A stretch of 64,000 nucleotides of DNA from a virus (Duplodnaviria > Caudoviricetes), in IMG/VR virus record IMGVR_UViG_3300037088_000771, positions 77 to 64,076 of that record, one strand, 5' to 3'. Below the pieces are notes generated by a model, which saw nothing but the letters and a program-made list of their open reading frames with translations, ran no database searches and was not told the origin of the DNA. Each line of letters begins with the position of its first letter. Within the stretch, counting starts at the first letter, position 1. Both the position numbers and the translations under genes were made by a program. Below, one piece after another: positions 3,051 through 37,794 of this stretch.

Positions 3051-3470
3051 ATGAAAAAGTTTTTAACATTAATTTTATTGCTTGTATCATTGACAGCATT
3101 TTCTCAGAAACAACATGAGAAATTTTATCAAAACATTGCTGCTGAACGCATGCATGGAAGAACTGAAGTTGTATTAGATGACAGAACTCGTGCAGATATT
3201 GTGACTGACACATTTGCAATTGAAGTTGAATTTGCTCATAAATGGGCAGAAAGTATTGGACAATCATTACATTATGCACACAAACTTCATAAAAAAGCAG
3301 GTATTGTATTAATTACTGACGGAAGAAAAGACGATAGATTTGTTCAGATATTAATGCCTGATGCAGTTGAACTTGGCATTACCGTTTGGGTTATATTCAT
3401 TAATGATAATAGCTGGGGAAAGGTTGAACCACTCATACAAAAAGACAGTACAGTGAAATTTATTTACTAA
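3051..3470 (+). CDS. signal-peptide protein with PD-(D/E)xK-like motif
   Basis: MKKFLTLILLLVSLTAFSQ leader; RADIVTD..AIEVEFAHKWAESIGQSLHY. Confidence 0.6.
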   Translation: MKKFLTLILLLVSLTAFSQKQHEKFYQNIAAERMHGRTEVVLDDRTRADIVTDTFAIEVEFAHKWAESIGQSLHYAHKLHKKAGIVLITDGRKDDRFVQILMPDAVELGITVWVIFINDNSWGKVEPLIQKDSTVKFIY

Positions 3471-3512
3471 TCTGTTGCATATCTCAAAATAAAAAACTAA
3501 TTTTGACACCTT

Positions 3513-4247
3513 ATGTTAATTATAAGTAAGAAAAAGGATTATTATGATGGTGTCGTTGGCACTATGGGTGTTGACAAAACCATTGTCTACAATCGTGATA
3601 CGGTTGAACTTGAAAACAATTTATTACCAAAACCATTCAAAGTATCCAGAGGTTATTGGGGTTTAAATCATCGTGAAAATCCTTTTCATGAACTAATCTA
3701 TCACAGCATTAATAAAGAAAAGAGAAACGTTTGTGATGAATATGCTCATTTTATCATAGGGTTCTGCGGAAAATTGTATATTGGTTGGAAACTTTACACT
3801 GAAATTGATACTGAAACTCATGCTATAAGCACCGAAATAACATATGATGCTGAATTCATGAAAACTATTTTAGAAGTAAAAAGCTGGCATGGTAATCTGG
3901 ATGATAGTATCAAATACATTTTAACTTATGATGCATTACCAATATTCAGATTTTTAAAAGTACCTGTTTTTATTTATGACGGAGATTTTGATAGAAAAAC
4001 TTTTGATAAAAGACGTAGCATTTATAACAGTCATAAACCAAAATTCTTAATTAATCCACTTTTGAAGGATTATGAATTTTATAAAGTATTCGATACATTT
4101 CAAGCATTTCAAGAAGTATCAATGTTTATGGGTGGAGTACTTGGTGCAGGTGAAAAGGAAATAACTGAAGTGGCTGATAAATATAAGATTACACAACACG
4201 GATTCAATAAATTTAGTTTTAGAAAAGATAAAGAAATAAAAAAATGA
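3513..4247 (+). CDS. hypothetical phage protein
   Basis: 244-aa ORF; KDYYD N-terminus and HGF..SFRK C-terminus. Confidence 0.7.
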   Translation: MLIISKKKDYYDGVVGTMGVDKTIVYNRDTVELENNLLPKPFKVSRGYWGLNHRENPFHELIYHSINKEKRNVCDEYAHFIIGFCGKLYIGWKLYTEIDTETHAISTEITYDAEFMKTILEVKSWHGNLDDSIKYILTYDALPIFRFLKVPVFIYDGDFDRKTFDKRRSIYNSHKPKFLINPLLKDYEFYKVFDTFQAFQEVSMFMGGVLGAGEKEITEVADKYKITQHGFNKFSFRKDKEIKK

Positions 4248-5240
4248 AAGTAAAAATAGGTGACAAAATTGTAAACGCTGAAGATGAACCAATTATGATC
4301 ATTTTCAGTAATGCTGAAGAAAGATTAACCGTTGCTAATCATTTAAAAAGCATGCCAGATGATAATCTTAAGTATTGCATGTTTAATGAATCAACTGCAA
4401 GTCGAGAAGAAGTGAAAAAATTCATGAAAATATGAAAAAGTCAATTCTTGAAAAATATGGCAATAAAGAGGTTAATCCAAAATATTATGGTACTGTTACA
4501 ATAAGCGGTAGTTCTACTGGAATGACAAACACGTTAACCAGAAAAGAATTTCAAGAAGGTAAACAGGGTTTGGTTTGGATGGACAATATAACAGGCAAAC
4601 TTGTTTTCAAAGACGATGAACAACCACTTGGCATAATGGAACAGATCAGATTAGAACAAGTCAATAAACCACCTGTAAGAGTTGAAGAAGAATTTAAAAG
4701 AATGAACGAAGCAAACAGAAAACAAAAAAATATTACTTTATATGGTGGATTTGAGTTCATTGAAAAATTAAGAAAAGCATTACCAAAGAAATATTTTAAA
4801 TAAAATGGCAGATTCAGATTACGGTACTCCTTTTGATAACAAAAAGAAAAAGGAAATGATTCAACAGCGATGTGTAATGATTAAAAACATATCAGGTCAA
4901 GACAATGTTGCGATTGGAATATGTGGTGCATATACATGTGCAAAAACAAATAAAGATGGAATGTTTAGTTCTCCGTCAGTTTCAAGTGCTTCTAAAGCAG
5001 ATAATTTGCTTAATCAGTTAGCAGCAGAAAATAAAAAATTGACACAAGAAAAAATTAAACTGAATCTTAAGGTATTGGAGTTACAAAAAGAAAATTACAG
5101 TCTTACCCAAGACAATCTTAAGTATAAATTAAAAGCTGAAGAAGAGAAAGGTAAAGTCTGGAAAGATTTAAATAAGAACATCAATAGTATTTATCAAAAA
5201 ATAGTTGACTGGTTTAACAGTTAAGTTCTTTAAAAACAAT

Positions 5241-5590
5241 GGGGGTGTTTTGGCTTTGACAGCATGGCAGACTGGTATAGTAAGCAAGTGGTAGTTGAAT
5301 CGGACTACGTTAAAAAGGTTCAAAACAACAAACGCAGAAGACATAATGTCTATTCCAACTTCTCTCACGAGAGGTAACGCAGTATTCGCAAGAAACGCTG
5401 AACTTGCAATCGCAGCATAGGAAGCAAAAAAATCGGCAAAGAACCTTCCCGCTTGAGGAAGCAAAAGACAAGACGGCTTGTTGATGTTCCGCAAACATCA
5501 GATATTTCGCTGAATCAGAAAATTCAGATAAACTTGTAGAAAACATATTGATCGCATGTTTGGACCGGGGTTCGACTCCCCGCACTTCCA
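5241..5590 (+). ncRNA. ssrA: tmRNA
   Basis: 5' gggggtg..tttgac; 3' ggaccggggttcgactccccgcacttcca; G3:U pair; tag ORF 5334-5420 AEDIMSIPTSLTRGNAVFARNAELAIAA*. Confidence 0.92.
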
Positions 5591-5610
5591 CTAACAAACA
5601 AAAATGAGCA

Positions 5611-33976: not shown

Positions 33977-34357
33977 ATGGAAACAAATCCGAAATTATTC
34001 GCAATAGCCGATACCCTGTCGAAACTGACAGTATTAGAAGCAAAAGAATTGGTTAATATTCTTGAAAACGACTATGGCATCAAACCCGCTAATGTATCTG
34101 TACCTGTTGGAATAGTGCCAACAGTTGAAGTTGTTATCCCAGAACAGACTGAATTCGATGTTTATTTGAAAGAAGTTGGTGGACAGAAACTGCAGATAAT
34201 CAAAAAAACTAAAGAATTAAGAAATTTAACTCTCATTGAAGCAAAAACATTAGTTGAGAGTGCTCCATGTAAAATATTGGAAAAAGCATCAAAAGAAAAT
34301 GCAACATTGTTTAAAACCGAATTAGAAATTTTTGGTGCAGTAATTGAAATAAGATAA
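33977..34357 (+). CDS. rplL: ribosomal protein bL12 (L7/L12)
   Basis: LTVLEAKELV..LE..YGI N-domain; EQTEFDV.L...G..KL..IK...L.EAK.LVESAP C-domain. Confidence 0.9.
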   Translation: METNPKLFAIADTLSKLTVLEAKELVNILENDYGIKPANVSVPVGIVPTVEVVIPEQTEFDVYLKEVGGQKLQIIKKTKELRNLTLIEAKTLVESAPCKILEKASKENATLFKTELEIFGAVIEIR

Positions 34358-35676: not shown

Positions 35677-36714
35677 AAGAAATTCCAACATGAAAAATTT
35701 TCAATCTTTTTGTAACTTTTACTTATTTATATACGTATAAGTAGAAAATTAAGAATTATGAAAAACCAGTTGAAAGTTGAAATTACAGAAATGTTTGTTG
35801 CAAAACCTGATAAAGACAGGATTTATTTCGGCTGCATTAAAAGAAGCAGAAACGAAAAAGGCGAAATGAATCTTTTTAGTCGTATTGCTATGCCCGATGG
35901 CGGTGTATTGTGTGCAAATGAAACTGATCAGTTAATTCTTGCAAAAAATCTTAATAGCATGGCGATTATGATACTTGATAAAAACATTCATAATGATACT
36001 GGTAAATCAGTAATATTAGAATATCCGAATCATTTTACCATACCATTTTCATATGATTTCAACAGAATGTTTTTAAATTAGATGAAAGATTTTGAACTTC
36101 TTAAACGTACTTACCCTGTTTCCGAATGCCCACGTATTTGTGATGGATATTTTTATATTATAATAAATAGCACTCCAGAAGAAAGAAAGGAGTGGGGTAT
36201 TGATGTGAATGAATTACAAAGAACAATAACAACTGGTGAAAAGTACATTTATCAGGTAGCAAAAGAAAACGGAGAATTTAAAACAATGTGTTTGTGTTTT
36301 ACAAACTATGCAATAATAAGGAAGAGAATATTTAAATTGGAGGACGAATAAAATGGAAGAAGAATTAAACATAATAAAAGAAAAAATTAATTCACTGCCT
36401 GTGACTACCATACCTGTAAATTATTGGGAAGATAAAAAATATAAACCATATACCGTTAAATTGGTAAAGTTGGATGATGTTTTGAAGATACTTCAATTAA
36501 TAAAAAACTTAGAATTAGAATGAAAGCACTTGTTAAAATTAATGTAAGAAAAGAGTTACCATTAGAATTACAAACGGTAACCACCGATGTTGGTGAATGC
36601 TATTACAGTCATGTTCATTTACAATGGTTTCATGCTGAAAATAACATGCCTTTTGATGTAAATGAAACGAAACCTCATACATGGGAGAAACTGGTTAGAG
36701 CAGTAGAATAAAAC

Positions 36715-36788
36715 GCTTCCGGGGCTGGGTGGCAAAAGGCATTGGTCTCTAAAACCAATTTGTGCAGGTTCGATTCCTGTCGGAAGTA
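36715..36788 (+). tRNA. amber suppressor tRNA (CTA)
   Basis: ttggt-ctCTAaa-accaa; acceptor gcttccg/cggaagt; T arm gcagg-ttcgatt-cctgt. Confidence 0.85.
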
Positions 36789-36894
36789 CAAAAATAAATG
36801 AAGAATAATTTGGAAATTAAAAAACTTTGACTAATTTTGTATCTCAATAGTATTTATAAGTCTACAGAGTAATATTAATTAACAAAGAAAAACG

Positions 36895-37281
36895 ATGAAA
36901 AACAAAATTTTGATGGATGGTGGCACTGGCTTAATGTAGGTTAAGTTAGTAACAGTCACAAGAAAAGACCTTACTGCAGGTTATCAACTCGTCCAGTCAG
37001 GACACGCAATTGCTGAATTCGTTCAGCAGTTTCCCGACAAATTTGCTGAATGGAAACAGCAATCCAATTATCTTATTTCGTTATCTGTCGATAACGAAGA
37101 AAAACTTCAAAGACTATTTTACAAATTACAGGACAATGGTGCTGATGTCGTTGCATTCACAGAACCCGACATTAACGATCAGTTGACCAGTATTTGCTAT
37201 TATGGTACGCCTGAAATGCGCAAGCATACAGATAAGTTAGACTTAGCTCTTAGTGAAGTTGAAGTCGCAACTAATAATTAA
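36895..37281 (+). CDS. PTH2-family peptidyl-tRNA hydrolase with in-frame TAG at codon 15
   Basis: MKNKILMDGGTGLM*VKLVTVTRKDLTAGYQLVQSGHAIAEF...LSVDNEEKL...FTEPDINDQLTSI; absent from the ORF track. Confidence 0.8.
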
Positions 37282-37461
37282 ACTCGCAACTAAATTTTAA
37301 AGCCATGAAACATTTATAGATGACAACCAGACCCCCGTAATGATGTGAGGTTTACCAGATTCGCAATTCGCAAATTGCGAATCGAAAATTGGCAATTACT
37401 CAGTGAGAACCAGTTTTAAATAAAAACTAAAATTAATTATTAAAATTTAATACACATTATT

Positions 37462-37794
37462 ATGGAAACAATAGTAAAATTCAATTATTCAAAAATGAAG
37501 GAAGACATTAAAACCAAAGCAGAAGAACAGAAGTTCTTAAAGAATCAGAGAAAAGACGTACATATAGTTGGCGAAAGAAAAATGTCAACAAAAGATGCCA
37601 CATACAAGCATCAGACAAATAGAGAAGACTTACGAATAATGTACGCTGCCTATGGCATCGCCAGAGGTAAGAGTTTTTCTCAGACTGAAAATCATTTTCC
37701 AGAAGTAGATCATCCACTTCAGAAATACCAAAAAACTATCGACAGACTTTTAGAAAAGTATAAGGTACTTGTAAAGGTTGAAACAGTCGAATAA
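37462..37794 (+). CDS. conserved phage protein downstream of PTH2
   Basis: 110 aa; R..YAAYGIARGKSFSQTE motif. Confidence 0.7.
   Translation: METIVKFNYSKMKEDIKTKAEEQKFLKNQRKDVHIVGERKMSTKDATYKHQTNREDLRIMYAAYGIARGKSFSQTENHFPEVDHPLQKYQKTIDRLLEKYKVLVKVETVE

Follow-up and report, generated by a model that had tools for sequence, protein, structure and literature searches.

A conserved leader stop codon and its matching suppressor tRNA form a probable gate on a PTH2-like gene of large phages

What is an amber codon doing between the start codon of a phage gene and the fold that the gene encodes? The question is raised by a 64-kb fragment of a viral contig in IMG/VR (record IMGVR_UViG_3300037088_000771), whose 64,000 nucleotides are called the window below; CheckV rates it 20% complete, which puts the whole phage at roughly 320 kb. 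A transfer RNA (tRNA) gene with the anticodon CUA is followed there by an ATG leader of 14 sense codons, an in-frame TAG and 113 further codons for a protein resembling PTH2, a peptidyl-tRNA hydrolase. A first-pass annotation of the same letters had described these elements, had noted that no ATG, GTG or TTG lies between the TAG and the first conserved motif, and had proposed that the PTH2-like protein is made only with a working amber suppressor. The elements are all present as described, the first in-frame ATG, GTG or TTG after the TAG being 81 codons downstream. The proposal is supported by comparison of homologous loci, which reveals conservation of the stop, its covariation with a tRNA anticodon and the adjacency of tRNA and gene. 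A dedicated suppressor tRNA very probably decodes a programmed leader stop and thereby gates synthesis of the PTH2-like protein.

The leader stop is conserved across a broad set of loci. The window, 36 viral loci and 80 metagenome loci make a pool of 117, of which one is cut off and 89 are distinct. In a first viral scan, all 12 relatives open with an ATG and one to three more sense codons, and an in-frame TAG then precedes the domain. The wider viral scan found TAG in 31 of the 36 loci, TAA in one and an ordinary start in four, and the metagenome scan found TAG in 78, TAA in one and one locus cut off by the contig end. Among the distinct loci, 83 have an ATG leader closed by TAG, two an ATG leader closed by TAA, and four, all distant homologues, an ordinary ATG start. 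The leader-stop loci share 30-97% sequence identity, and the domain is intact and conserved in them. Leaders are one to 18 codons long overall, or one to nine when counted from the ATG nearest the stop, and MK[TAG] is the commonest. A long-leader class, MKNK(I/V)LMDGG(T/Y)G..[TAG], comprises the window and relatives, and a long leader recurs in a 40%-identical lineage (L100) as MKNYTDGGTGTPM[TAG]. The base following the stop is a purine in all 83 TAG loci, G in 52 and A in 31.

Two relatives extend the pattern into the fold itself. In L098 (gene 3947-4348) and in megaphage LR756501 (L191, about 4001-4100), a second TAG lies inside the PTH2-like domain, and without its decoding the fold could not form. 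Other departures from the simple arrangement are seen in single lineages. L100 holds, at 3204-3986, a second PTH2-like copy with the same long leader that becomes HNH-endonuclease-like after about 35 domain residues, and an intact copy lies behind it at 3983-4339. In L092 and L093 (about 4339-4590) and in L097 (4337-4594), the next gene after the PTH2-like one encodes 85 amino acids, begins ATG ATG TAG (MM[TAG]I...) and looks like a second leader-stop gene of this subclade; its homologue in L095 starts ordinarily.

The stop and the anticodon change together. Both TAA loci, L085 and L165, carry a tRNA(UUA) upstream, at 886 and 426 nt respectively; related loci have CUA tRNAs that share 81-85% identity with these two. 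No UUA or UCA tRNA occurs in any of the 83 TAG loci, and mismatched pairs of stop and anticodon are absent among the loci in which the suppressor was found. In a quick maximum-likelihood tree (IQ-TREE; 113 columns, SH-aLRT support only, with L098 omitted as its domain is cut at the second TAG), L085 and L165 fall in different clades with an SH-aLRT of at least 95%. At least two joint changes of stop and anticodon must therefore have occurred. Gene A, which lies upstream of the module, serves as a control: across 22 distinct junctions its stop is TAG 14 times and TAA 8 times, and the tRNA stays the same. The leader stop is thus unlike a normal terminator, because it changes solely together with the anticodon whereas the stop of gene A changes freely.

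The tRNA also keeps close company with the gene. Of the distinct TAG loci, 54 have 1.5 kb or more of flanking sequence upstream. A tRNA(CUA) precedes the gene on its own strand in 48 of these and occurs anywhere in the locus in 52, at a median distance of 535 nt; relatives of the window also have a tRNA in the corresponding place beside the PTH2-like gene. Whole genomes hold 33-55 tRNAs, and the matching suppressor is the nearest tRNA in 67 of the 72 leader-stop loci that contain any tRNA. Three complete relatives (G001, 362,763 bp; G002, 348,923 bp; G003, 364,702 bp) have exactly one tRNA(CUA) each, 0.3-3.7 kb upstream of the PTH2-like gene.

The remainder of these genomes is written in the standard code. 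Open reading frames (ORFs) of at least 100 amino acids cover 0.85, 0.86 and 0.84 of G001, G002 and G003 under code 11. When TAG is taken as sense, coverage rises by 0.01-0.02 (to 0.86-0.87), below the gain from a control in which TGA is read as sense, and coverage of the window responds likewise. The signature of code 15, many in-frame TAGs with a low code-11 coverage that is rescued by reading TAG as sense, is not seen. TAG ends 62 of 1220 long ORFs in the complete relatives and 8 of 84 greedy ORFs of at least 80 amino acids in the window, which bears out the earlier statement that it is an ordinary stop elsewhere in this DNA. A gap-filling screen and a leader screen, used in place of an all-against-all comparison of TAG-containing ORFs (affected by off-frame conservation in close relatives) and of a noisy late-start screen, showed no other clearly TAG-dependent ORF in G001-G003. 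The PTH2-like ORF is the sole one with a leader TAG and no canonical start for 17-81 codons.

The tRNA has the form expected of a suppressor. Rfam matches it at 51.1 bits against a gathering score of 29, and of the 45 tRNAs that ARAGORN reports in the window it alone has the anticodon CUA. Its cloverleaf is of the elongator type, with G1 paired to U72 and A73 as discriminator, and its anticodon is complementary to a stop codon, as in a suppressor tRNA. The best matches of the tRNA fall in different tRNA families at 0.65-0.77 identity and give no amino acid assignment. The inserted residue may differ among phages, because the suppressor tRNAs differ widely. Since the modelled fold begins after it, the leader-stop site should be a tolerant N-terminal position at which the identity of the residue matters little. 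Genes for GlnRS/GluRS or class IIb synthetases were not found in records G000-G003, which implies a host enzyme for charging. An initiator tRNA that reads UAG as a start codon was considered and rejected. In initiator tRNAs, positions 1 and 72 are mismatched and the anticodon stem ends in three G-C pairs; here 1-72 is paired and only two G-C pairs stand by the anticodon loop. The in-frame ATG leader in 85 of 85 leader-stop loci and the TAG inside the domain of two relatives also speak against such a start.

The protein behind the stop belongs with PTH2 by profile and by predicted structure. The read-through product matches PF01981 at 28.1-28.6 bits (cut-off 23), as the first-pass annotation would have it; starting with the residue next to the TAG, the match covers profile positions 1-81 of 115. 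The family profile aligns over its full length with Protein Data Bank entry 2zv3, a PTH2, at E = 1.5e-9. An AlphaFold2 model built from a 37-sequence alignment has a pLDDT of 94 and a pTM of 0.86, and the first strand in it begins immediately behind the stop codon, at residue 2. All 13 Foldseek matches with E of at most 0.001 are chains of 2zv3, 1q7s, 1wn2, 3erj, 1xty and 1rlk, at TM-scores of 0.72-0.78. By this model, the product has the PTH2 fold. The phage family shares the VxxR.DL...Q..HA motif with archaeal and eukaryotic PTH2 (2zv3, Bit1 in 1q7s, 1xty, 3erj), and R8, Q19, H22, D77 and T83 are invariant in it. It differs from them in having only 19-24% identity, a two-residue deletion at the GKGK loop and EPD in place of DAG, with its invariant E75 aligned to the Asp of the archaeal DAG. 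The catalytic residues of the Sulfolobus enzyme we take to be Lys, Asp and Thr. Hydrolase activity is plausible from these sequences and unproven, because the GKGK loop is deleted and EPD replaces DAG. A bacterial Pth gene was not found in G001-G003.

These comparisons suggest a simple mechanism. The phage would supply a single elongator tRNA that reads UAG through its CUA anticodon, and a host synthetase would presumably charge it. Translation would begin at the leader AUG and reach the UAG just before the first β-strand of the enzyme. Without the suppressor, release factor 1 (RF1) would terminate there and only a short peptide would be made; with it, UAG would be read in competition with RF1 to give the full PTH2-fold protein. 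Enzyme output would then be graded by the activity of the suppressor relative to RF1. We infer both of the steps that this requires in vivo, the charging of the tRNA and its decoding of the stop.

Several observations weigh against such a gate. The evidence for it is comparative throughout, and no RNA run was listed as containing the stretch. Four distant homologues start ordinarily, and two of these still adjoin tRNA(CUA), so gating alone does not explain the link between gene and tRNA. In L173, a leader TAG is present and tRNA(CUA) was not found within 4 kb; in the complete genome G006, which holds L094, the leader reads MT[TAG] and no CUA anticodon occurs among roughly 23 Rfam tRNA hits examined. 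The tRNA of the window is atypical in its G at position 8 and its D stem of 3 bp, and the suppressor tRNAs vary greatly between phages, with A or U as discriminator. The Lys-bearing GKGK loop of archaeal PTH2 is deleted in the alignment of the phage family profile. TAG-ended genes have no excess of nearer back-up stops, the median distance being 7 codons for TAG and TAA genes and 6 for TGA. Finally, cluster C mycobacteriophages read (A/G)TG TAG GTG, with tRNA(CUA) following the gene. In I3, IkeLoa and Myrna the annotated gene begins at that GTG, 7 nt upstream of which is a Shine-Dalgarno-like GAAGG or GGAGG, and the gene of this cluster may start without suppression. As a separate observation, G006 has five tRNA-Glu-like genes with odd anticodon loops (TATTCAG or TTTTCAG) to which ARAGORN can assign no anticodon.

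The mycobacteriophage arrangement is what one would expect if the leader were a separate mini-ORF and the PTH2-like ORF were translated by termination-reinitiation or from a non-canonical start, with tRNA(CUA) unrelated or serving other targets. The near-cognate starts ATA or ATT that follow the stop at many loci, and the leader TAG of G006 with no suppressor detected, point the same way. The codon after the stop at most loci is, however, GTA or GTT, and at others ACx, GAx or AAA, all of them very poor start codons. Reinitiation also needs no change of anticodon with the stop, yet this is what both TAA loci display, while nearby ordinary stops swap TAG and TAA freely; nor can it bypass the in-domain TAGs of L098 and LR756501. 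A mini-ORF is therefore an unlikely account of the family. Those in-domain TAGs touch on a different question, namely whether code 15 is used widely, for instance in late genes beyond the 20% fragment, so that the PTH2-like gene is one of many. The database entry for this protein shows Q at the TAG, its gene caller having taken TAG as sense, and some distant relatives have extra TAG genes (L098, and the MM[TAG] gene of L092, L093 and L097). ORF coverage rises with TAG as sense in L097, L098 and L103, in L097 and L103 beyond the TGA control, and these lineages, like that of LR756501, may use TAG more widely. Against this stand the complete relatives, with no gain beyond the TGA control, no other clearly TAG-dependent ORF and the many genes that TAG ends there and in the window. 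An RF-1 domain (PF00472) was found in none of four records, against 10 of 14 control genomes, unlike TAG-recoded phages, some of which are reported to encode release factor 2 in the available sections of two sources (10.1101/2021.08.26.457843, PMC13037316). Wide recoding of this genome is thus very improbable.

Even less is to be said for the two remaining alternatives. That UAG encodes pyrrolysine or another special residue is suggested by the anticodon and by the ARAGORN label 'Pyl', which reflects the anticodon alone; the site precedes the fold, where the residue should not matter, the suppressor tRNAs are ordinary cloverleaves that vary widely among phages, and the site can become TAA with a UUA tRNA, so this reading is highly implausible. 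A lone in-frame stop near the 5' end does resemble a fresh nonsense mutation, and a sequencing error or recent pseudogene would look the same. The stop nevertheless stands at the same position in 85 of the 89 distinct loci with the domain intact. Contigs from four other runs (X7, X8, X9 and X10, from peat and lake water) have the same letters as the window at 36937-36939, no difference being found; these are contigs, not raw reads, and none is flagged as the source of the window. Error or decay can be regarded as refuted.

If the gate is real, its purpose allows several views. One possibility, which we prefer but hold only tentatively, is feed-forward coupling, in which peptidyl-tRNA recycling or tRNA deacylation is matched to suppression: the suppressor would push ribosomes beyond normal UAG stops, and the enzyme would be supplied in proportion. 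About as likely is that the stop serves as a timer or lock and confines the enzyme to cells with an active phage tRNA set. A broader and more doubtful proposal holds that suppressor tRNA and PTH2-like enzyme form an ancient self-contained module, found in mycobacteriophages, Enterobacterales jumbo phages and megaphages of 600-735 kb. The enzyme would act on the suppressor tRNA or on the products of suppression, giving feedback on read-through, and the leader-stop gene would be the first recoded gene, a seed of genome-wide TAG recoding. The pairing persists without a leader stop. In L101 and L102 there is no leader stop, yet a suppressor tRNA is adjacent. In Prevotella phage Lak-B5 (L203) the PTH2-like gene at 4001-4264 lacks the leader stop, and a tRNA(UUA) lies at 3341-3413, about 600 nt upstream. 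These pairs suggest a functional link beyond gating.

The module is present in cultured phages, which makes the mechanism directly testable. The leader is MTH[TAG] in Erwinia phage pEa_SNUABM_44 (gene unannotated, tRNA(CUA) 3.5 kb downstream), MAQ[TAG] in Pectobacterium phage CBB (gene truncated, tRNA about 4 kb downstream), ML[TAG] in Salmonella phage Arash (C-terminal fragment alone annotated, tRNA about 1 kb downstream), MT[TAG] in Acinetobacter phage ME3 (annotated from just past leader and stop, tRNA about 450 nt upstream) and MK[TAG] in Tenacibaculum phage pT24 (gene truncated, tRNA 2.6 kb upstream). Ralstonia phage RsoM2USA has the leader ML[TAG], an unannotated gene and no suppressor within 2.5 kb on either side; as predicted, one of the 45 tRNAs of its genome is a tRNA(CUA), encoded on the same strand as the gene. 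In RaK2 the gene starts ordinarily, and none of the 8 tRNAs that ARAGORN called there is a suppressor. In Xanthomonas phage XacN1 the PTH2-like domain is joined to the C-terminal end of ORF364, and in Xoo-sp13 it is fused into a longer ORF, in both without a stop. In a tblastn search, sequences with 86-99% identity to the CBB protein were matched in Cronobacter phage GAP32, Serratia phage BF and Yersinia phages. Because of the leader stop, the gene is missed or truncated in MW879343, KU574722, OQ632216, MG752970 and LC168164. For Arash, Table 2 of the virion proteome, in the available part of that paper, omits Gp084 and Gp085, which is uninformative as the virion proteome was searched against the annotated fragments (PMC10585845).

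Two carrier contigs were deposited within bacterial metagenome-assembled genomes (MAGs), that of G001 (L186, JBAZIW010000001.1) in a 'Candidatus Paceibacterota' MAG and that of L188 in a Patescibacteria MAG. A scan of genome contigs matched only three MAG contigs, all resembling mis-binned phage and one of them the G001 contig. The placement is probably a binning artefact, though it may hint at the host.

The layout of the window around the module is given in Table 1. The window has a G+C content of 33.6% and almost all of its genes on the + strand. The promoter motifs named in the first-pass annotation are borne out only in part: a repeated phage word does precede the leader, and sigma-70 consensus sites are no more frequent than expected (5 in 36300-37600 against 5.5). 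The exact 10-mer TAGTATTTAT occurs seven times on the + strand, at 1136, 5185, 6941, 36848, 42550, 50665 and 63612, at roughly 0-65 nt before whichever called gene start comes next; these starts include those of the transfer-messenger RNA (tmRNA; about 45 nt) and the PTH2-like gene. The longer form TCAATAGTATTTATAA, when up to 3 mismatches are allowed, is matched 15 times where 4.3 are expected. From its recurrence and placement, the word is probably a phage promoter element, and its presence before both the tmRNA and the PTH2-like gene hints at their co-regulation. The AAT-TAG-ATG junction of genes A and B (window 36079-36084) recurs in relatives, and its TAG variants could yield an A-B fusion protein when an amber suppressor is present. 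The 45 tRNA genes are spread over 1-36800 and, with a tmRNA at 5241-5591 (tag AEDIMSIPTSLTRGNAVFARNAELAIAA) and a gene for ribosomal protein bL12 at 33977-34357 (Pfam Ribosomal_L12, 72 bits), make up a large translation-related region. A DNA search of a phage collection with the locus as query gave no match.

Table 1. Coordinates of the suppressor tRNA, the leader-stop gene and neighbouring features in the window, with the tRNA-Glu-like genes of G006
Feature	Position	Strand	Evidence or remark
tRNA(CUA), amber suppressor	36715..36788	+	ARAGORN (36715-36789), Rfam RF00005
Repeated motif TCAATAGTATTTATAA, core TAGTATTTAT	36844..36859	+	Between tRNA(CUA) and leader ATG; candidate phage promoter element
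Leader MKNKILMDGGTGLM	36895..36936	+	ATG and 13 more sense codons, in frame with the PTH2-like domain
In-frame leader TAG	36937..36939	+	Followed by G (+4 purine)
PTH2-like domain, 113 codons and TAA stop (37279-37281)	36940..37281	+	PF01981, 2zv3 profile match, AlphaFold2, Foldseek
Gene A	35758-36081	+	Ends in TAG (36079-36081); syntenic, upstream of the module
Gene B	36082-36351	+	Same frame as gene A, TAG-ATG junction; accompanies the module in many loci
tRNA-Glu-like genes of G006	L209 3962-4037; L210 193-266, 338-412; L213 125-199, 262-336		

For the suppressor tRNAs of jumbo phages with the standard code, which have been puzzling, the module offers a concrete target. It would be a natural amber switch of one tRNA and one gene, both halves of which have been co-mutated to ochre twice, and possibly an intermediate toward full stop-codon recoding. 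It also points to a systematic mis-annotation of the PTH2-like gene and is a source of natural suppressor-tRNA and leader parts.

Two classical systems share single features with the module. The A1 protein of phage Q-beta arises when host near-cognate tRNAs read through an in-frame stop at low efficiency and add a C-terminal extension. Here, too, read-through of an in-frame stop would give a functional longer protein, but a dedicated cognate suppressor lies beside the gene and the stop comes ahead of the whole functional domain. The bar minigenes of phage lambda are ORFs of two to three codons ending in a stop that cause drop-off of peptidyl-tRNA, the substrate of Pth, and the common MK[TAG] leader resembles them. 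Unlike bar minigenes, the leaders span 1-18 codons and their stop covaries with an anticodon, which argues for decoding rather than drop-off.

The closest parallels come from recoded and tRNA-rich phages. Suppressor tRNAs of phages, and a regulatory role of TAG recoding, have been described (10.1101/2021.08.26.457843, PMC13037316), and in the available sections of their preprint Borges et al. propose that recoding regulates when genes are translated (10.1101/2021.08.26.457843); the word 'hydrolase' does not appear in its main text. In the literature searched, which includes the available parts of PMC6102473 and PMC9262239 and leaves supplementary tables (e.g. XacN1 Table S3) and most subscription journals outside its scope, no report was found of a PTH2-like gene whose leader stop is conserved and which adjoins a suppressor dedicated to it, nor of covariation between a stop codon and a tRNA anticodon. 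As described in the sections available, code-15 phages (crAss-like, Lak) are alike in that a phage tRNA(CUA) decodes in-frame TAG in a host with the standard code. They differ in that their stops are scattered through late genes, whereas here the code is standard, a single gene is concerned and the stop closes a short leader; moreover, the tRNA adjoins its target and there is no release-factor gene. XacN1 is, by the accessible text, alike as a tRNA-rich jumbo phage with CUA suppressors and the standard code (PMC5852040). Its authors could not identify the genes targeted by these suppressors, read-through being tested only at the 3' ends of genes in that part of the paper (PMC5852040), and the suppressors stay unexplained because the PTH2-like domain of XacN1 is fused to ORF364 without a stop. 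In contrast, the locus described here has an identified target, a stop in the 5' leader.

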